Source: Sulfuricella sp. (lineage in GTDB: Bacteria > Pseudomonadota > Gammaproteobacteria > Burkholderiales > Sulfuricellaceae). From it: DNA of 64,000 nt. The position numbers and the translations under genes are program-made. Shown here piece by piece: positions 3,373-50,140 of the stretch (position 1 is its first letter; every line of letters starts with the position of its first letter). Below the pieces are notes generated by a model. That model was not told the origin of the DNA. It ran no database searches and worked only from the letters and a program-made list of their open reading frames with translations. The DNA is taken from positions 22,345-86,344 of the forward strand of contig JBAZID010000011.1 of the NCBI GenBank assembly GCA_041651995.1. The letters are read 5' to 3'.

Positions 3373-3434
3373 ATAGGCGTGGGGTGTGAGGAGGCTGGGG
3401 TTTACTCCTCACTCCTCACCCCTCACTCCTCACC
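3373..3434. repeat. Heptamer (C[C/T]CCTCA)n inverted-array element, short copy
   Basis: gtgtgaggag...ggggtttac-(ctcctca/cccctca)x4 between glyA and nrdR. Confidence 0.75.
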
Positions 3435-3440
3435 CGCTCA

Positions 3441-3890
3441 ATGAAATGCCCCTTCTGCGGCGAAGCCGATACCCAGGTCATTGATTCGCGCATCAGCGAG
3501 GAAGGCGTCAGCGTGCGCCGCCGCCGTCGTTGCACGAGCTGCGAGAAGCGTTTTACCACCTACGAAACAGCGGAGCTCAGGATGCCGGCGGTGGTGAAGC
3601 AGAATGGCAGCCGCGAGGAGTTCAGCCGCGAGAAGATCCGCACCAGCTTCATGCGCGCCCTCAACAAGCGTCCGGTTTCCACCAGTCTGGTGGATGGTGC
3701 CATCCAGCATATCGAGCAGAAAATGCTCAGCCTGGGTGAGCGCGAAATCCCTTCCCTGAAGGTGGGTGAAATGGTGATGAACGAACTGCGCAAGCTCGAC
3801 AAGGTGGCCTATATCCGCTTTGCCTCGGTGTATCGCAGCTTCGAGGACGTGGACGACTTCCGCGACGTGATCAAGGACCTGGACAAATAG
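3441..3890 (+). CDS. nrdR: Transcriptional repressor NrdR
   Basis: MKCPFC...[19 protein letters not shown] cone, YIRFASVY. Confidence 0.97.
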
Positions 3891-5665: not shown

Positions 5666-5823
5666 ACCTGGAAAAATCAGTTAACCACGGGGCACACAGG
5701 GTACACAGGGTAAAATCGAGGACTATGAAGTATTGGGTAAATATTCGTTATGAGAACGGATTCCCAGGCTCAAACGCTCTTGCCTTCCCCGTGATCCCCG
5801 TGGTTAAGATTTAGTTTTAAGGA
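5666..5823. mobile_element. MITE-like element family A (TIR about ACCTAGAAA; inner TTAACCACGGGG arms), TAA target duplication
   Basis: TAA(5663-65)|ACCTGGAAA...TTAACCACGGGG...CCCCGTGGTTAA...TTTTAAGGA|TAA(5824-26). Confidence 0.75.
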
Positions 5824-7412: not shown

Positions 7413-7847
7413 ATGAAAAAAAACCGCCGCAAAGCGCGCGAACTCGCTGTTCAGGGGCTTTACCAGCGCCAGCTTACTGGCGACGCAGTGGAAACAATCG
7501 AAGCTCAGCTGCGCGAGCACGAAGAATTCGAAAAGATCGATGGGGAACATTTTTCCGCCATACTCCATGGCGCAATCAAGGATGTGACCAATCTGGAAAG
7601 CAAGCTCCAGCCCTGCCTCGACCGGCCCATGGAAAGCCTGAGCCCGGTTGAGCGCGCCGTCCTGCTGGTGGCGACCTACGAGTTCGTGCATCACCTGGAA
7701 ATCCCCTACCGCGTGGTGATCAACGAAGCCATCGAACTGGCCAAGTGTTTTGGCGGAACGGATGGTTACAAGTACGTCAACGGCGTGCTCGACAAGCTGG
7801 CTGCCAGCGAGCGGGCCAGCGAGGTCAACGCGGCAAAGGTAAAGTAA
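7413..7847 (+). CDS. nusB: Transcription antitermination factor NusB
   Basis: [31 protein letters not shown]. Confidence 0.97.
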
Positions 7848-7912
7848 GCAACCCCCGAATTAATACCGGACCTGCAATTCCGGTTTAATCTTCCGCCTTG
7901 CTCTGGCTATAA

Positions 7913-8090
7913 TCCCGGATTGTTTATTGGAATGCATGTGCGGTAGGAGCGCCGCCCCCGGCGCGAATGTAAGCAAAAATCGCGGCGAGGGCGCCGCTCC
8001 CACGGCGGTGTTTTGGCGCCAGGAATCCCAGTGGGGAGATGACGGGACTGTGAAATAAATCAGCGTCTCCCTAATGGAGATAATCCGGGA
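7913..8090. mobile_element. MITE-like element family B (TIR WCCCGGATTRTCCATT) enclosing a GTAG-type REP doublet; TAA target duplication
   Basis: TAA|TCCCGGATTGT...ATAATCCGGGA|TAA; REPs at 7943-7966 and 7980-8003. Confidence 0.8.
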
Positions 8091-8101
8091 TAATCAGACT
8101 C

Positions 8102-9814
8102 ATGGCGAAAAAACTCCGTTACGGTGATTATCTCGGCGCAGTGCGGCACCGGCAGCGCAAGCTCAGCTACAACGAAGTTGTCGCGCATACCCGGCGCTCT
8201 CCGCGTAAAACCAAATTGCGTCCGCGCGATTTTTATCGTCTCCTTGCCCCCTATATTGGCGTGCGTTTTGCCGAACAGTTGATGGCAGTCGTGCCGCTGG
8301 CAGCGTTTCTGGTGTTCTTCGAGGTTGCTGTGCTGGATTCGGCGGTGAGCGGCTGGGAAGGCATTGCCCTGGGCATGGCGGCGGTGATCCTTGGCCTGAT
8401 GCTGTTCATGGAAGGGGTCAAGCGCGGCCTCATGCCATTCAGCGAGAATATCGGCTATACCATGCCGGGCAAGTTTTCCACCCCGATGGTCCTGGGTGTA
8501 GCCTTCGTGCTGGGTTTCATGGCCACGCTTGCCGAGCCGGCCATCGGTGCGCTCAGGGCGGCCGGCAGTCTGGTGAGCCGCGATGAAACGCCATATTTGC
8601 ATCTTTTGCTCAATGAGCGCTCGGATTTGCTGGTGTTATCGGTGGGCTTCGGGGTCGGCCTGGCCGTTCTGGCCGGGGTGCTGCGTTTCATTTTCGGCTG
8701 GAGCCTCAAATCCCTGATTATCGCCACCCTGGTGCCATGTCTCGGCATGACCCTGTTTTTCTCCCTGGATGGCCGGCTGGAGCCGATCATCGGGCTGGCC
8801 TGGGATTGCGGTGCGATCACCACGGGACCGGTGACGGTGCCGCTGGTACTGGCCATCGGGATTGGCGTGTCTGCCGCCACCAGCAAGGAAGACAACCCGC
8901 TTTCCGGTTTCGGTATTGTCACCCTGGCCTCGCTGTTCCCGCCCATCGCGGTGATGTCGCTTGGCCTGGCGCTTTCATTGGGCGATTTTCCGGTGCTGGA
9001 TAGCGCTTTGAAAATTACCGCCAAGACGGCATGGTATGAGCGTTCCCCTTTTGATGACATCATCGCTGCGCTGCGCGCCATTCTGCCGCTGACCCTGTTC
9101 CTCTGGCTGGTGCAGCACTGGTGGCTGAAGAGCCCGGTGAAGGAAGGAAAAATCCTGCTGTACGGCATCGCCCTGGCGGTATTGGGCATGATGCTTTTCA
9201 ATATTGGCCTGGATTACGGCCTGACGCCCCTGGGCGGACAGGCGGGCGGGATGGTGCCGGCCGCTTTTGCCACTTTCCCGGACATTCAGGGTTCGCCGCT
9301 GTATCCATACTGGATGGGCATCGGACTTGCCCTGCTGTTTGCCCTGCTGCTCGGCTTTGGCGCCACGCTGGCGGAACCTGCGCTGAATGCCATGGGCGTC
9401 ACGGTACAGAACCTGACCGATGGCGCTTTTACCAAAACACTGCTGATGCATGCGGTGGCGGTGGGGGTGGGCCTGGGTGTGGCCCTGGGCGTGGCAAAGG
9501 TGATTTTTGCAATCCCGATTGTGCTGCTCATTCTCCCGTCCTATCTGCTGGCCCTCGCCCTGACGGTGATTTCCAGTGAGGAATTTGTCAATCTGGCCTG
9601 GGATAGCGCCGGGGTGACCACCGGCCCGGTGACCGTGCCACTGGTTCTGGCCCTGGGACTGGGATTGGGCAAGGCGGTTGGCGCACAGGATGGGTTCGGC
9701 ATCCTGGCGATGGCTTCGGTCGGGCCGATTCTAAGCGTGCTCCTGACCGGGCTGTGGATTCGCTGGCGGGTGAAGAGGCGTCGTATGGCTATGGAAAGGA
9801 CAAACCACGGGTGA
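8102..9814 (+). CDS. Fused double-DUF1538 polytopic membrane protein
   Basis: Two internal repeats, each with ATLAEPA and (D)xGxxTTGPVTVP; many hydrophobic helices. Confidence 0.85.
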   Translation: MAKKLRYGDYLGAVRHRQRKLSYNEVVAHTRRSPRKTKLRPRDFYRLLAPYIGVRFAEQLMAVVPLAAFLVFFEVAVLDSAVSGWEGIALGMAAVILGLMLFMEGVKRGLMPFSENIGYTMPGKFSTPMVLGVAFVLGFMATLAEPAIGALRAAGSLVSRDETPYLHLLLNERSDLLVLSVGFGVGLAVLAGVLRFIFGWSLKSLIIATLVPCLGMTLFFSLDGRLEPIIGLAWDCGAITTGPVTVPLVLAIGIGVSAATSKEDNPLSGFGIVTLASLFPPIAVMSLGLALSLGDFPVLDSALKITAKTAWYERSPFDDIIAALRAILPLTLFLWLVQHWWLKSPVKEGKILLYGIALAVLGMMLFNIGLDYGLTPLGGQAGGMVPAAFATFPDIQGSPLYPYWMGIGLALLFALLLGFGATLAEPALNAMGVTVQNLTDGAFTKTLLMHAVAVGVGLGVALGVAKVIFAIPIVLLILPSYLLALALTVISSEEFVNLAWDSAGVTTGPVTVPLVLALGLGLGKAVGAQDGFGILAMASVGPILSVLLTGLWIRWRVKRRRMAMERTNHG

Positions 9815-10108
9815 ACCCAGATCGGCCATTAAACCTATAAAAAGCAATTAACCACGGAGTTCACGGAGCACACGGAGTAAAAACCATAGATTGCATGATA
9901 TTTGGCATTCACCCGTTGGGTGAGGCCATAAATGACCGCAAACTGCCTTTCTCCGTGCCCTCCGTGCCCTCCGTGGTTATCGAACTGAGGTTTCTAGGTT
10001 AAATGCATGGGCATGCAGGAGCGCCGCCCCCGGCGCGAATTTGGCCGCAAATCGCGGCGAGGGCGCCGCTCCCACAGCGGTGTTTTGTCACAAATGGATA
10101 ATCACGGA
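9815..10108. mobile_element. Family B element (TGA target duplication) interrupted by a family A element
   Basis: TGA(9812-14)|ACCCAGATCGGCCAT...REP doublet 10015-10075...AATGGATAATCACGGA|TGA(10109-11). Confidence 0.75.
9833..9999. mobile_element. Family A MITE-like element nested in the family B element
   Basis: TAA(9830-32)|ACCTATAAA...(CACGGAGnn)x3...(CTCCGTGnn)x3...TTTCTAGGT|TAA(10000-02). Confidence 0.8.
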
Positions 10109-10473
10109 TGAATGAAGACATCATTGTATTGACCGATGTCGTGCTGATTACCGTCATCGTCCAGCGTGGCGTGGCGGATACGGTGGTGCAGGCCGCCCAG
10201 AAGGCCGGGGCGCAGGGCGCGACGATTTTCTATGCGCGCGGCACCGGGGTGCGCCAGCGCCACCTGGGCGTGCTTGGCGTGGCGGTCAATGCGGAAAAGG
10301 AAGTGGTGTATATCGTGGCTTCCACTGACCAGGCCGACCGGATTTTCGAACGGATATTCGTTGCCGCCAAGCTCGATACGCCCGGCATGGGAATGATTTA
10401 CATGACCCATCTGGAAAAAATGGCAACGCATGTGCCGCATGATCTGGTTGCCCGGATTGCCAGCCATGAGTGA
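10108..10473 (+). CDS. PII-like signalling protein 1
   Basis: ITVIVQRG...GATIFYARGTG...EKEVVYIV...PGMGMIY, PII fold pattern. Confidence 0.85.
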   Translation: MNEDIIVLTDVVLITVIVQRGVADTVVQAAQKAGAQGATIFYARGTGVRQRHLGVLGVAVNAEKEVVYIVASTDQADRIFERIFVAAKLDTPGMGMIYMTHLEKMATHVPHDLVARIASHE

Positions 10474-10816
10474 TGCCGGTTTGCTGCAATCTTACAAGGT
10501 GATCACCTGTTTCCTGCCTGCGGGCAAGGGCAAGGAGGTGCTCGATGATCTGCGCAAGCAAAAAGGGGTGTACAGCGGCTTTGTGCATCACGCACGAGGC
10601 GCGGGTGTCGACAGCAGGCGCGGCAATAATGCGCCGTTCTATGTGGAACGAGAGGTGATCACCGTGCTGGCGCCAGTGGCGCAGGCGGATGAGGTATTTG
10701 AATTTCTTTATTTCAATGCGGGCCTCGATCAGCCGCACGCCGGCATGGTGCTGATGGAAAAGGCGATTCGCGGGATGATGTGCAATCTTACCCCGGAAAT
10801 GGTGGATGAAGGCTGA
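10466..10816 (+). CDS. PII-like signalling protein 2 (divergent)
   Basis: KVITCFLPAGKG...HHARGAG...EREVITVL...AGMVLM; ATG at 10466 overlaps the PII-1 end. Confidence 0.75.
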   Translation: MSDAGLLQSYKVITCFLPAGKGKEVLDDLRKQKGVYSGFVHHARGAGVDSRRGNNAPFYVEREVITVLAPVAQADEVFEFLYFNAGLDQPHAGMVLMEKAIRGMMCNLTPEMVDEG

Positions 10817-15459: not shown

Positions 15460-15570
15460 GGTGAGGGGTTAGAGGTGAGGGGTGAGGCGGAAAGTCAAAC
15501 CCCCAAGCATGCACCGAACCTGGGTTTGCCCCTCACCCCTCACCCCTCACCCCTCACCCCTCACCCCTAT
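15460..15570. repeat. Heptamer (CCCCTCA)n inverted-array element
   Basis: GTGAGGGG arm - AAACCCCCAAGCATGCACCG core - (CCCCTCA)x5; includes the stop codon of the minus-strand gene. Confidence 0.85.
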
Positions 15571-16726
15571 CGTTCACCGGTTTCTCCCGCCGCATTCCTC
15601 CCGCGACCATCTTGTATTCGAACAGGCGGCATTCCAGCGGGCCGTTGAAAAGCGGTATGCGACGTGACGCGGAAAGCCGGATCAGCTTCGCCAGGCGGAA
15701 ATCAGCGGTGAAAAAATAGGCGCGCCAGCCGGTGAATCGCTGCTTCAATGCATGGCCCAGTTCCGGGTACATGGCGGCCAGTTCTTCCTGTTCGCCGATT
15801 CTCACGCCGTAGGGCGGGTTGGTCACCAGCACGCCTTCTGGTGCGGGTGCAGGCATTTCCAGCAGATTGCCTTGCTTGAGTTGTACTGCATCCAGCAGAC
15901 CGGCGGTTTCAAGGTTCTCGCGCGCCACTTTCAGCACGTCGCCATATAAATCGCTGCCGTAAATATGGCAGAACTGTACCGGCTTGCGTCGTGCCTCGGC
16001 ATCCTGGCGCAGTTTTGCCCAGGCCTGGGCATCGAAGCGATGCAGTTTGCTGAAGGCGAATTCGCGTCCCAGGCCAGGGGCGATGTCGAGTGCCATTTGC
16101 GCCGCTTCCATGAGGAAAGTGCCGCTGCCGCACATTGGATCGAGTAAGGTTTCACCCGGCTTCCAGCCTGAGAGGTGCAGAATGCCTGCCGCAAGATTTT
16201 CGCGCAGCGGGGCTTCCACGGATGAACGGCGCAGGCCGCGCTTGAATAGCGCCGGGCCGGAGGTGTCGAGGTAAAGTGCAAAATTTTCCTCTTCGAGAAA
16301 GGCGTGGATGCGCAGATCCGGCTCATGAGTGTCTATGCTTGGCCGTTCGCCGGTCTGGTCGCGGAACTTGTCGCAAACCGCATCCTTGATTTTCAGGGTG
16401 ATGAAGTCCAGGCTTTGCAGGGGGCAGCGCTTGGCGCTGACCTTGACCATGATGGTGCATGTTCTGTCGAACCAGTCCTGCCAGGGCAGCGCGTAGGCAG
16501 CCTTGTAAATGTCTTCCTCTCGGCGGTAGCGGCCACTGTCCAGGCGCCACAGGATGCGGCTGGCGATGCGGCTTTCCAGGTTGGCGCGGTAGCACAATTC
16601 GAATGGCCCGCTGAATCCGGCACCGCCGTCAGTGGCTTGCACCCCGGATGCGCCAAGCGCTTCCAGTTCGGCTGCCAGCGCGCTTTCAAGTCCACGTGGA
16701 CAAGGGGCAAAAAAATGTTCAGACAT
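15554..16726 (-). CDS. THUMP-domain SAM-dependent rRNA methyltransferase (RlmL-like)
   Basis: CPRGLE, ANLESRIASRIL, APLRENLAAG, DPMCGSGT, NPPYG. Confidence 0.9.
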   Translation of the reverse strand: MSEHFFAPCPRGLESALAAELEALGASGVQATDGGAGFSGPFELCYRANLESRIASRILWRLDSGRYRREEDIYKAAYALPWQDWFDRTCTIMVKVSAKRCPLQSLDFITLKIKDAVCDKFRDQTGERPSIDTHEPDLRIHAFLEEENFALYLDTSGPALFKRGLRRSSVEAPLRENLAAGILHLSGWKPGETLLDPMCGSGTFLMEAAQMALDIAPGLGREFAFSKLHRFDAQAWAKLRQDAEARRKPVQFCHIYGSDLYGDVLKVARENLETAGLLDAVQLKQGNLLEMPAPAPEGVLVTNPPYGVRIGEQEELAAMYPELGHALKQRFTGWRAYFFTADFRLAKLIRLSASRRIPLFNGPLECRLFEYKMVAGGMRREKPVNDRGEG

Positions 16727-16798: not shown

Positions 16799-16864
16799 AA
16801 CCACGGGACACACGGGGAGCACGGGGAAAACTTATTGCTTCTTACCCCCGTGTACCCCGTGGTA
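16799..16864. repeat. Family A inner-arm inverted repeat without outer TIRs
   Basis: AACCACGGGACACACGGGGAGCACGGGG...CCCCGTGTACCCCGTGGT. Confidence 0.75.
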
Positions 16865-16873
16865 AAAAGCTTT

Positions 16874-18520
16874 ATGAATTTAGCTCAACTACTCGCCCAA
16901 CATCTTTCCACGCCGGACCGGATTCTCTACAGCCAGTTCGAGGAAGGCGCATGGCGCGATTACTCTGCGGCTGAGGTGGTCCGGTTAGCCGCGCGCTGGC
17001 AGCAGGCGCTGCGCCGGGAAGGTTTGCTGGCCGGTGACCGGGTGGCGCTGTGCCTGAAAAACGGCGTGAACTGGGTGGCGCTGGATATGGCTGCCCTGGG
17101 GCTGGGGCTGGTGGTGGTGCCGCTGTATCTGGATGATAACGCTGAAAACATGGCCTGGTGCCTGCGCGATTCGGGCGCGCGTTTTCTGGTGCTGGAGAAC
17201 GCGCGCCAGTTTCAGGCGCTGCAGGCATGTGCATCCGAATTGCCGCCTGTCGTATGCGTGCTGGATGGGGCGGCAGGTGGCATTGCGCTGGCAAACTGGC
17301 TGCCGCCCGCGGCTACGCCGGATTTCGAGGTTCAGGCGGTTGCACCAGAGGTGCTGGCCACCATTGTTTACACGTCTGGCACTTCCGGCCGTCCGAAAGG
17401 GGTCATGCTCTCGCATGGCAATATTCTGGCAAATGTTTCGGCCTCAAGCGAGGTGGTGCACCTGCATGGTGAAGACAGCCTGCTTTCCTTGTTGCCCCTG
17501 TCGCATATGTTCGAGCGCACTTGCGGCTATTACCTGCCGCTGGCGGCGGGCATCAGAGTGGCCTATGCGCGTGGCATCCAGCAGATCGGCGAGGACCTTG
17601 CTCATCACCGGCCCACGGTGATGATTGCAGTTCCCCGGGTGTTCGAGCGCTTTCTGGCGCGGCTGGAAAAATCGCTATCCGAATCCTTTGTAAAGCGGGT
17701 CCTGTTCCGCCTTACCGTTCATCTCGGCTGGCGCCGTTTCAAGGGCCGGGCCGGCCGGCTGGAAAAAATGCTGTATGCCCTGTTGCACCATATGGTGGCC
17801 AGGCCGGTTCTGATACGCCTGGGCGGGCGCCTGGCCCTTGCCGTGGTGGGCGGGGCAAAGGTGGAGTTGCGCATTGCACGCACGTTCATTGGGCTTGGGC
17901 TCAACATGATTCAAGGTTACGGCCTTACCGAGGCGGCGCCAGTGGTGGCGGCAAATCGTGAATGGGACAATGATCCGGTAACCGTTGGCGCGCCGCTGTC
18001 ACAGGTCGAAACCTGCATCAACGCAGCGGGTGAACTGCTGGTACGCGGACCCTCTGTCATGCTGGGCTACTGGAACAATCCGGAAGAGACAGCAAAAATT
18101 CTTGCTGCCGATGGCTGGCTCAATACCGGCGATCTGGCCGAAATGCAGGATGGCAAGATCATCATCAGGGGGCGCAGCAAGGATATTCTGGTGCTTTCCA
18201 ACGGCGAGAAAGCATCGCCCCAGGATGTGGAAATTGCCATTCTTGATGATCCGCTGTTTGAGCAGGTGATGCTGGTTGGCGAAGGGAAACCTTTCTTTTC
18301 CTTGCTGGCCGTTACCCAGGAGGAGGATGAGAAAATTCTCGTCCGGCGCGCCAACGCCCGATTGAAAGCCTTTCCCCGCTACGTGAGAGTGCGCCGTGTG
18401 ATTGCTGTCAAGGAGCCATGGACGATAGAGAACGGGCTTCTCACGCCGACCCAGAAAGTCCGGCGCAGCGCGGTAGAGGCGCGCTACGGGGAGCTAATCA
18501 AGCAGCTCTATCAGACCTGA
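16874..18520 (+). CDS. Long-chain fatty acid-CoA ligase (AMP-dependent synthetase)
   Basis: YTSGTSGRPKG, QGYGLTEA, TGDL, GRSKD; ATG 16874 preferred over the ORF-track start. Confidence 0.9.
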   Translation: MNLAQLLAQHLSTPDRILYSQFEEGAWRDYSAAEVVRLAARWQQALRREGLLAGDRVALCLKNGVNWVALDMAALGLGLVVVPLYLDDNAENMAWCLRDSGARFLVLENARQFQALQACASELPPVVCVLDGAAGGIALANWLPPAATPDFEVQAVAPEVLATIVYTSGTSGRPKGVMLSHGNILANVSASSEVVHLHGEDSLLSLLPLSHMFERTCGYYLPLAAGIRVAYARGIQQIGEDLAHHRPTVMIAVPRVFERFLARLEKSLSESFVKRVLFRLTVHLGWRRFKGRAGRLEKMLYALLHHMVARPVLIRLGGRLALAVVGGAKVELRIARTFIGLGLNMIQGYGLTEAAPVVAANREWDNDPVTVGAPLSQVETCINAAGELLVRGPSVMLGYWNNPEETAKILAADGWLNTGDLAEMQDGKIIIRGRSKDILVLSNGEKASPQDVEIAILDDPLFEQVMLVGEGKPFFSLLAVTQEEDEKILVRRANARLKAFPRYVRVRRVIAVKEPWTIENGLLTPTQKVRRSAVEARYGELIKQLYQT

Positions 18521-18550
18521 CAAGCACGGGTGGCGGAATCCGTTCGTTAA

Positions 18551-18675
18551 ACCCGGATTGTCCATTGGAATGCTTGTGCATGTAGGAGCGGCGCCCTCGC
18601 CGCGAATGCAATCGCAAATCGCGGCGAGGGCGCCGCTCCTACAGCAATGTTTTGACTTAAATGGATTGTCTCGGT
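18551..18675. mobile_element. Family B element with a perfect 24-bp REP inverted doublet; TAA target duplication
   Basis: TAA(18548-50)|ACCCGGATTGTCCATT...GTAGGAGCGGCGCCCTCGCCGCGA/TCGCGGCGAGGGCGCCGCTCCTAC...|TAA(18676-78). Confidence 0.8.
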
Positions 18676-19085
18676 TAAAACGGCTTGACCACCACCAGAA
18701 TCACCGATGCGCTCAGTATCAGCACGGGTAATTCGTTGAACCAGCGGTAGAAGACATGGCTGCGGCGATTGCGCTGCCGGGCAAAATCCTCCACCAGCTT
18801 GCCGCAGTAGAGGTGGTAAATGATCAGAACCACCACCAGCGCCAGCTTGGCATACAGCCAGCCGCCACTGAATCCATAACCCAGCCACAGCCAGGTGCCG
18901 AGTGTCAGCGCCAGAATGGCCAGCGGGGTCATGAAGCGGTACAGCTTGCGCTCCATCAGGGTCAGGCGCTCTGCTGTTGCGGCATCCACGTCCATGGCGT
19001 GATTCACGAACAGCCTGGGAAGATAGAACAGTCCGGCAAACCAGGAAACAATAAAAATGATGTGGAAGGCTTTAATCCAGAGCAT
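18675..19085 (-). CDS. hemJ: Protoporphyrinogen oxidase HemJ
   Basis: KAFHIIFIVSWFAGLFYLPRLFVNH, MERKLY, FNELP. Confidence 0.93.
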   Translation of the reverse strand: MLWIKAFHIIFIVSWFAGLFYLPRLFVNHAMDVDAATAERLTLMERKLYRFMTPLAILALTLGTWLWLGYGFSGGWLYAKLALVVVLIIYHLYCGKLVEDFARQRNRRSHVFYRWFNELPVLILSASVILVVVKPF

Positions 19086-33601: not shown

Positions 33602-33682
33602 GGTGAGGGGTGAGGGGTGAGGGGTGAGGGGTAAAACCACCATGCACCGCTTAGGCCCATCACTCATCACTCTTCACTCCTT
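33602..33682. repeat. Heptamer (GGGGTGA)n inverted-array element
   Basis: (GGGGTGA)x3-GGGG - AAAACCACCATGCACCG core - degenerate TCACTCA arm. Confidence 0.8.
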
Positions 33683-33686
33683 ACGA

Positions 33687-37285: not shown

Positions 37286-37592
37286 TCACCTGCTGGCCGA
37301 ACTACCAGCCAAACGCCTGACCGCCATTGAGGCGCGCGCCGGTGAATTGGCGACACTGAAAGACTTGCGCCTGGCCGTGGCGCAAACGCAGCAAGATCTC
37401 GCTGCCGCGCTGGGCGTGGGGCAAGACACGATTTCACGTTTGGAAAAACGTAGCGACATGCTGCTCTCCACCTTGCGTCGTTATGTCGAGGCGATGGGTG
37501 GCAAGCTGGAGCTGGTGGCGCAATTCCCCAACCGTCCGCCAGTAGTCATTGACCATCTGGCTCCGGAAAGCAGCCCGCGTAGGGCGCAATAA
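37269..37592 (+). CDS. XRE-family HTH antitoxin (HigA-like)
   Basis: [24 protein letters not shown]...[12 protein letters not shown]. Confidence 0.88.
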
Positions 37593-37610
37593 CCGAAGGG
37601 CATTGCGCCG
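37579..37610. repeat. GTAG-family REP, left flank of the RAYT
   Basis: GTAGGGCGCAATAACCGAAGGGCATTGCGCCG. Confidence 0.9.
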
Positions 37611-37614
37611 AATG

Positions 37615-38145
37615 TTAATCATCGTAACCCAACCCCCTTTCGTCTCCGCCAGCCCAATCCGGCGGATAGACACCTTCGGCAACCAGATGGTGAAACGTCG
37701 AATAAGGCCAATCGGCTACACGCCTGACCAACCCATGTTTCAACGGGTTGATATGCACATAATCCATGTGCGCCCGGTAATCCGCCTCGTCCCGAATCAG
37801 GTGTTCCCAATACCGTCGTTGCCAGATGCCTCGCTCGCCCCGGCGGACGCGCACGGCGGATAATTTCTCGCCGCGCGGTATCACCTTGGAAAAGCCCATT
37901 TTGATCAATCGCCACCGGGTCGCGAAATCCGCATCTTCTGGTGGCAACTCGATCACGCAATGCAGGTGGTCGGGCAAAACCACCCAGCCGTGGATGTGGA
38001 AAGTGTGGCGTTTACGCACAGCGCGAACAGCTTGCCGCAACAAATCAATATGCTGCGTGAGCAGGTCGTTTCCGTGCCGTTGCAGCAAATTGACAGTGAA
38101 AAAATAAGTTCCGCCCGGATGCCAGGCTCGACGGTAATCAGGCAT
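37615..38145 (-). mobile_element. REP-associated tyrosine transposase (RAYT, HUH/Y1)
   Basis: GGTYFFTV, VVLPDHLH (HUH), WQRRYWEH, DYVHINPLKHG. Confidence 0.93.
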
Positions 38146-38172
38146 GGGGCGAGTATCGGGGCATTTGACATG

Positions 38173-38204
38173 CGGCGCAATGCCCTACGGTTATTGCGCC
38201 CTAC
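38173..38204. repeat. GTAG-family REP, right flank (inverted, 31/32 identical to the left copy)
   Basis: CGGCGCAATGCCCTACGGTTATTGCGCCCTAC. Confidence 0.9.
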
Positions 38205-38230
38205 GGGAGCTGCATTTCAGGGAGGCCGGG

Positions 38231-50055: not shown

Positions 50056-50063
50056 TTCAAGAA

Positions 50064-50140
50064 GCGCTCAGCCGTCAGTATTCAGCCATCAGGAAAATCT
50101 GATGATGGCTGAATGCTGATAGCTGAGCGCTGACAGCTTA
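50064..50140. repeat. Inverted GCTGA(T/C)A heptamer-type array
   Basis: Arms 50064-50092 and 50099-50130 nearly complementary. Confidence 0.8.

Follow-up and report, generated by a model that had tools for sequence, protein, structure and literature searches.

Nested miniature transposons at a DUF1538/P-II gene junction in Sulfuricella: a start codon best read as preserved by target duplication

Did mobile DNA build the start codon of a P-II family protein gene in Sulfuricella sp., or was a codon that already existed kept when the DNA arrived? The question is raised by a 64-kb stretch of contig JBAZID010000011.1 (the window, from a genome of 58% GC), in which a gene for a DUF1538 membrane protein, a predicted transporter, is followed by the P-II gene. 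The spacer between the TGA stop of the first and the ATG of the second is 293 nt long and is occupied by two repeat elements, with element A lying inside element B. A sequence-only reading of the window had proposed a GTGA overlap with a GTG start in the ancestor, a 3-bp duplication (TGA) on insertion of B, and a new ATG formed from the last A of the element plus the duplicated TG. Comparison with relatives and with other copies of B establishes the anatomy of the junction, the order of events, an ancestral ATGA overlap and a 5-bp target duplication, and on these sequences the P-II ATG is best read as inherited and preserved, not element-built. Overall, the explanation that we consider likely is that B inserted into ATGAA with a 5-bp duplication that retained both the stop and the ancestral ATG, and that A inserted afterwards.

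A one-genome-per-species scan for P-II relatives returned 80 loci, the seven closest of which (L001–L006 and L080, with P-II identities of 89–98%) come from Sulfuricella and Sulfurimicrobium-type genomes. All seven lack an element at the junction and read CACGG-ATGA-ATGA(A/G)GAC, in which stop and start codons share ATGA and the P-II gene starts with ATG; in L001 and L003 the junction is CACGGATGAATGA(G/A)GAC, and the element-free stretch as found in these two is CACGGATGAATGAAGAC. More distant relatives have spaced ATG or GTG starts, with L007 combining GTG and a strong Shine-Dalgarno sequence. Because the ATGA overlap with ATG is found in all seven element-free relatives, the pre-insertion target was ATGAA. 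The coupled stop/start overlap that the sequence-only reading placed in the ancestor is thus borne out, and its GTG start is contradicted at all of these orthologous junctions. A start codon created by the element would be absent or different at the empty site, yet the empty sites in these relatives already carry ATG as the same codon. A spaced ATG in relatives had been named as evidence against the replacement of GTG by ATG; the ATG of the closest relatives is unspaced, and the replacement is refuted all the same.

The base on which the GTG proposal turned, G9811, lies at a four-fold degenerate position where GGA has become GGG, a silent change (Gly). Synonymous divergence from the nearest relative, L001, is already dS 0.25–0.6, so one silent A-to-G change at 9811 is unsurprising, and the GTGA that had been taken for an ancestral remnant is better explained by a later change of this kind in the left duplicate. 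Each half of the junction reads the same in two Logan assemblies made from independent read sets (SRR18595300 and SRR6484325), whose contigs break inside the repeats; with this agreement, the nested structure did not arise as an artefact of assembly.

The length of the duplication was read from the other copies of B. Three copies are present in the window (7914–8089, 9816–10107 and 18552–18674, numbered 1 to 3 here), and that at the junction aligns over its full length with the other two and with copies at L158 and L143; the arm of the repetitive extragenic palindrome (REP) in B has six matches in the window against 0 expected by chance. By this homology the junction copy begins with CCCAG at 9816 and ends with CACGG at 10107, one base inside each of the ends proposed earlier (9815 and 10108). 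Copy 1 reads ggct-ATAAT-CCCGG…CCGGG-ATAAT-cagactcATG, and its empty site, ggctATAATc(a/g)g.ct.ATG, is found in six relatives (L001, L002, L003, L005, L006 and L080); copy 3 reads ttcg-TTAAA-CCCGG…CTCGG-TTAAA-acgg. Outside the window the duplications are (A/T)TAAA at L158 and TT(T/G)AT at L060, with TTGAA on the left at L184, and at L143 two bases have been lost from the left end of B, which leaves no readable duplication. Beside the TAA core the bases vary from copy to copy, being A..T in copy 1 and T..A in copy 3, but they equal the opposite flank in 4/4 cases, and those of the junction copy match the opposite flank once the ancestral A is used. Such a pattern marks these bases as derived from the target, which makes the duplication 5 bp long, (G/A)TGAA at 9811–9815 and 10108–10112, instead of the TGA first described, and A10108, once assigned to the element, is most plausibly the base with which the right duplicate opens. 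From these sequences the target preference of B is roughly the pentamer WTRAW.

Once A and one TAA are deleted, the junction copy of B becomes colinear with its counterparts, save for a single 1-nt gap, so B inserted first and A second. In this order of insertion, in the position of A and its TAA duplication, and in placing nested non-autonomous elements exactly at the DUF1538/P-II junction, the earlier description holds.

The proposed history would begin with DUF1538 and P-II genes that overlapped by four bases (…CAC GGA TGA / ATG AAT GAA…) and were translationally coupled. B, a 122-nt element with the ends CCCGGATTGT…ATAATCCGGG, would have inserted in the pentamer ATGAA, and its 5-bp duplication would have copied the whole stop/start overlap, so that the left duplicate kept the TGA stop of the transporter, the right duplicate kept the original P-II ATG and both frames were unchanged. 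Element A, 167 nt, would later have inserted at TAA inside B, and the A of the left copy, freed from its role in a start codon, would have drifted silently to G (GGA to GGG). Such a junction would be a clean natural case of a target duplication that separates translationally coupled genes with both frames intact, and it indicates that duplication length must come from other copies and empty sites before an element is credited with building a codon. Within the biology of bacterial MITEs (miniature inverted-repeat transposable elements), it is a well-documented, ordinary insertion.

Several observations weigh against this history. The two duplicates differ at exactly the disputed base (G9811 and A10108) and the L158 copy is also mismatched at position 1, only about seven copies of B were available in all, no IS1380-like transposase that could mark an autonomous partner of B was found in the window or in the roughly 290 loci compared, and a simple sigma-70 consensus scan of 7800–10500 placed no promoter in A or B, where one may yet lie. 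Because of the mismatches at G9811/A10108 and in L158, a 4-bp duplication by an element with a terminal A or T keeps a small share of the probability. Under this variant the ancestor also had ATGA, B duplicated TGAA, A10108 was brought by the element, and the original A on the left became G. We regard it as unlikely: position 1 of the pentamer is indeed mismatched in 2/5 present-day copies (1/20 for positions 2–5), and IS1380-family elements also give 4-bp duplications, but the variant demands an additional base that is unpaired, varies between A and T and sits at just one end, copies 1 and 3 carry perfect 5-mers, and once the ancestral A is used 4/5 scorable copies match at position 1, from which we estimate a rough likelihood ratio of about 15 in favour of 5 bp.

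An ATG built by the element from a GTG ancestor is more improbable still. It would account for the left junction as it now stands, GGGTGA, and for the TGA/TGA and TAA/TAA cores, which are perfect in every copy, but 7/7 relatives have A, the A of the start codon, at the position in question, and an element-free relative with ATGA already exists at 98% P-II identity. An additional change from ATG to GTG before the insertion would be required, and in copies 1 and 3 the variable terminal bases (T..A, A..T, A..A) would have to coincide with the flanks. That no transposition took place, and that the insert came from recombination or gene conversion among REP sequences or is an assembly chimera, is scarcely credible. 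In its favour, REP doublets of this type are widespread without B flanks and short-read assemblies do break within the repeat. Against it, each of the three window copies is surrounded by terminal inverted repeats and exact direct duplications, a precise empty site exists for copy 1, and the two sides of the junction agree exactly between two independent assemblies.

Table 1. Features at and around the DUF1538/P-II junction (window positions).
Feature	Position	Strand	Description
B copy 1 with duplications	7909..8094	+	element 7914-8089; perfect ATAAT/ATAAT; within conserved TATAAT-N7-ATG upstream of DUF1538 start
DUF1538 membrane protein gene	8102..9814	+	570 aa; two fused DUF1538 domains; stop TGA 9812-9814
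Left target duplication of B	9811..9815	+	GTGAA, ancestrally ATGAA; contains DUF1538 stop codon
Element B at DUF1538/P-II junction	9816..10107	+	122 nt of own sequence; ends CCCAGAT...ATAATCACGG; split by element A
Left target duplication of A	9830..9832	+	TAA; site within B
Element A	9833..9999	+	167 nt; termini ACCTATAAA / TTTCTAGGT; inner arms CACGGAG-NN arrays at 9849-9880 and 9948-9979
Right target duplication of A	10000..10002	+	TAA
REP doublet, core hairpin of B	10018..10072	+	inverted GC-rich pair; arms 10018-10041 and 10049-10072
GGA, right end of B	10096..10098	+	9 nt before ATG; only Shine-Dalgarno-like bases now present
P-II family protein gene	10108..10473	+	121 aa; ATG at 10108; Pfam PF00543, E=8e-12
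Right target duplication of B	10108..10112	+	ATGAA; contains ancestral P-II ATG start
Third operon gene	10466..10816	+	116 aa; 8-nt overlap with P-II gene (ATGAGTGA)
B copy 3 with duplications	18547..18679	+	element 18552-18674; perfect TTAAA/TTAAA; right copy holds TAA stop of minus-strand UPF0093 (HemJ-like) gene

By its sequence, element B has the hallmarks of a MITE, a non-autonomous derivative of a DDE transposon. Terminal inverted repeats, in which CCCGGATTGT(T/C)… is matched with …ATAATCCGGG read as its reverse complement, are present in copies 1 and 3 and in those of L158, L143 and L060, and the duplications have a fixed length with empty sites in relatives (ATAAT, empty in six; (G/A)TGAA, empty in seven as ATGAA; and TTAAA). 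The copies are small (122–176 nt) and non-coding, and they number three in 64 kb besides those at L060, L143, L158 and L184. Copy 1 holds about 54 nt of additional sequence (roughly 8018–8071) that is absent from the others. Bacterial MITEs at gene boundaries that are co-transcribed with their neighbours include the Correia elements of Neisseria and the ERIC and IRU elements of enterobacteria, which form mRNA hairpins and are able to alter the expression of flanking genes. B is like them in its small size, lack of coding capacity, terminal inverted repeats, short AT-rich duplication and multiple intergenic copies, but its sequence is unrelated, its target is a 5-bp WTRAW and not TA, and its core is a REP doublet. 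It differs further in that it struck a stop/start overlap of 4 nt, with the result that both codons were kept in the duplication.

The core of B, an inverted pair of GC-rich imperfect palindromes, recalls REPs, bacterial interspersed mosaic elements (BIMEs) and REPINs. REPINs are REP doublets mobilised by REP-associated tyrosine transposases (RAYTs) and are not known to make a target duplication, whereas B has terminal inverted repeats in addition to its inverted REP doublet and duplicates 5 bp, and a REP of another type flanks the sole RAYT-like gene of the window. B resembles a REP doublet enclosed in a transposon shell more than it does a REPIN. The 19-nt REP core GCGGCGAGGGCGCCGCTCC was detected in at least 120 metagenome contigs (L081–L200 among the matches listed), with up to six per contig, and among the matches listed it mostly forms plain singlets or doublets without the ends of B. 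The RAYT-like open reading frame (ORF), at 37615–38145 on the minus strand, encodes 176 aa with a Y1_Tnp (IS200-like Y1 transposase) score of 22.5 bits against a cutoff of 23, and 52-nt inverted repeats of the GCGCAATAACCGAAGGGCATTGCGCC type, 88% complementary, flank it at 37567–38216; it probably encodes a RAYT that has a REP family of its own. A REP of the GCGCAATAACCGAAGGGCATTGCGCC type is also inserted in the L184 copy of B, and the L060 copy (3785–3885) carries another nested insert within its right REP arm.

ISEcp1, of the IS1380 family, makes 5-bp duplications of AT-rich targets such as TATGA (PMC2887853), and B shares both the duplication length and the AT-rich target. The likeness of the ends is modest: those of ISEcp1, CCTAGATTCTACGT and CCTAAATTCCACGT, start CC.AGATT.T.C.T and have 9–10/14 bases in common with CCC(G/A)GATTGTCCAT of B, which carries no transposase, unlike ISEcp1. 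A tblastn search with the ISEcp1 transposase gave no match in the window or the compared loci, and descent of B from the IS1380 family is no more than a lead. In BLAST searches of 72,556 plasmids neither B nor A had a match, a scan of viral contigs for the left end of B gave 19 matches, all by chance in unrelated sequence, and an Rfam scan of 7700–10600 found no family. Two further resemblances were set aside, a 12-nt match between the right flank at L143 and the 5' end of the P-II gene, which was judged a coincidence as the sequence diverges directly after it, and a fuzzy match to the end of B at L069, which lies within coding sequence with no element.

The start codon itself leaves little choice. 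The P-II protein has 1016 homologues in a homologue search, and its N-terminus, M-x-E/D-E/D-I-I-V-L-T-D, is conserved over the first ten residues, with L8, T9 and D10 invariant in 29 homologues. An upstream start is excluded by the in-frame stop TAA at 10099–10101 and a downstream start by the three invariant residues. To judge from these features ATG 10108 is the only credible P-II start, which answers the concern, raised with the sequence-only reading, that P-II might begin at another codon. The gene is under strong purifying selection overall (dN/dS 0.045 against L001).

We suggest that the insertions have changed how this start is used. The seven nearest relatives have the classic 4-nt ATGA overlap of translational coupling with a weak Shine-Dalgarno sequence, AAGGA at 10 nt upstream of the ATG, whose predicted duplex with the anti-Shine-Dalgarno sequence is –5.4 kcal/mol; in the window genome the stop and start codons are now 293 nt apart. 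As had been recognized, the right end of B supplies the bases that now occupy the Shine-Dalgarno position, and their duplex is –3.1 kcal/mol; a relative with a spaced start reaches –11.4 kcal/mol. The 331 nt of 9800–10130, containing the B REP and A hairpins, fold at –131.7 kcal/mol (z = –5.0) into two long hairpins. TTGTCA (10085–90) and GATAAT (10097–102) were rejected as a promoter, being 6 nt apart and so too close. We infer that the DUF1538/P-II pair is no longer translationally coupled and that P-II initiation now depends on the weaker GGA borne by B. The P-II/third-gene junction (ATGAGTGA) is still overlapped, unlike the DUF1538/P-II junction, and the third gene still depends on that overlap. 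With the coupling lost, a 293-nt hairpin spacer and a weaker Shine-Dalgarno sequence, the output of P-II and of the third protein, relative to that of the transporter, is probably lower than in relatives. In E. coli, REP hairpins between cistrons stabilise upstream mRNA segments, and by analogy the REP hairpins here may add further bias by stabilising the upstream segment. Should the drop in P-II be real, this strain would represent a naturally occurring mutant in which a DUF1538 transporter is uncoupled from its P-II-like partners.

The product of the first gene matches Pfam DUF1538 over two stretches (E=1e-106) and is, by sequence, a candidate UmpAB-like cation/H+ antiporter. UmpA and UmpB, a pair of DUF1538 proteins that together form a two-protein Na+(Li+,K+)/H+ antiporter, are the sole characterised members (PMC5484666); the window transporter is instead a single fusion of two DUF1538 domains. 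A Pfam search with the third gene product gave no match.

The DUF1538/P-II operon was struck twice by B, once at the ATGA overlap and once at TATAAT-N7-ATG upstream of its first gene. The upstream copy lies in a conserved ctggcTATAAT-N7/8-ATG (window 7909–8104) with no Shine-Dalgarno sequence, and the TATAAT before the DUF1538 ATG could act as the –10 box for a leaderless transcript. Its duplication re-creates gATAAT-N7-ATG beside the DUF1538 gene. At L004 (about 1130–1290) a different hairpin element sits 3 nt downstream of the same TATAAT before the DUF1538 gene, which suggests that the site upstream of this gene is an insertion hot spot. Copy 3 lies between convergent genes, one for an AMP-binding enzyme (stop at 18518–20) and the minus-strand UPF0093/HemJ-like gene.

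In four copies of B (the junction, window copy 3, L184 and L158) the stop codon of a flanking gene falls inside the duplication. A WTRAW preference in a genome of 58% GC, together with selection against gene disruption, would place B on expression signals that its own duplication then rescues. A stronger version, in which B homes to WTRAW sites that are mostly stops, stop/start overlaps and –10-like boxes, and in which both insertions in the operon were retained because they retuned the transporter:P-II ratio by an adaptive uncoupling of regulator and target, seems doubtful to us on the sites seen. If true, it would mean that a 5-bp duplication rebuilds the signal on both sides and that elements can split operons without killing genes.

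Element A has the hallmarks of a MITE in its inverted termini (ACCTATAAA / TTTCTAGGT), its TAA/TAA duplication and the split that it makes in B, and it is present as one full copy among all the DNA compared. Its arms are 32 nt long and 84% complementary, with seven CACGGAG array matches against 0.44 expected. The family that had been proposed for A thus comes down to this one full copy plus related array hairpins, which in the window lack the outer ends of A. The window hairpins, with periodic arrays of 7–9 nt, are intergenic (3396–3435, 5780–5810, 15460–15573, 16800–16870, 33602–33686 and 50063–50131); their units are of the GGTGAGG, CACGGGG and CAGC types, and they share the architecture of A without its outer termini.

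The motif of the A arms, TTAACCACGGAG-NN-CACGGAG, has 76 exact matches in 69 IMG/VR viral contigs (L220–L288), nearly all of which extend into a third CACGGAG unit. These viral arrays are solo and frequently lie immediately upstream of a start codon (…CACGGAGGgggagaaATG), and none occurs in an inverted pair; we rejected them as copies of A, being solo arrays and not elements, and Rfam gave no match on three viral contigs with the motif. L264, in which two array motifs face each other 1.8 kb apart, was considered as a full-length parent of A and set aside, as the interval between them holds phage structural-type ORFs and no transposase. The opposite nesting to that at the P-II junction is seen at L145, where a REP doublet lies within a GCAGAGG-array hairpin.

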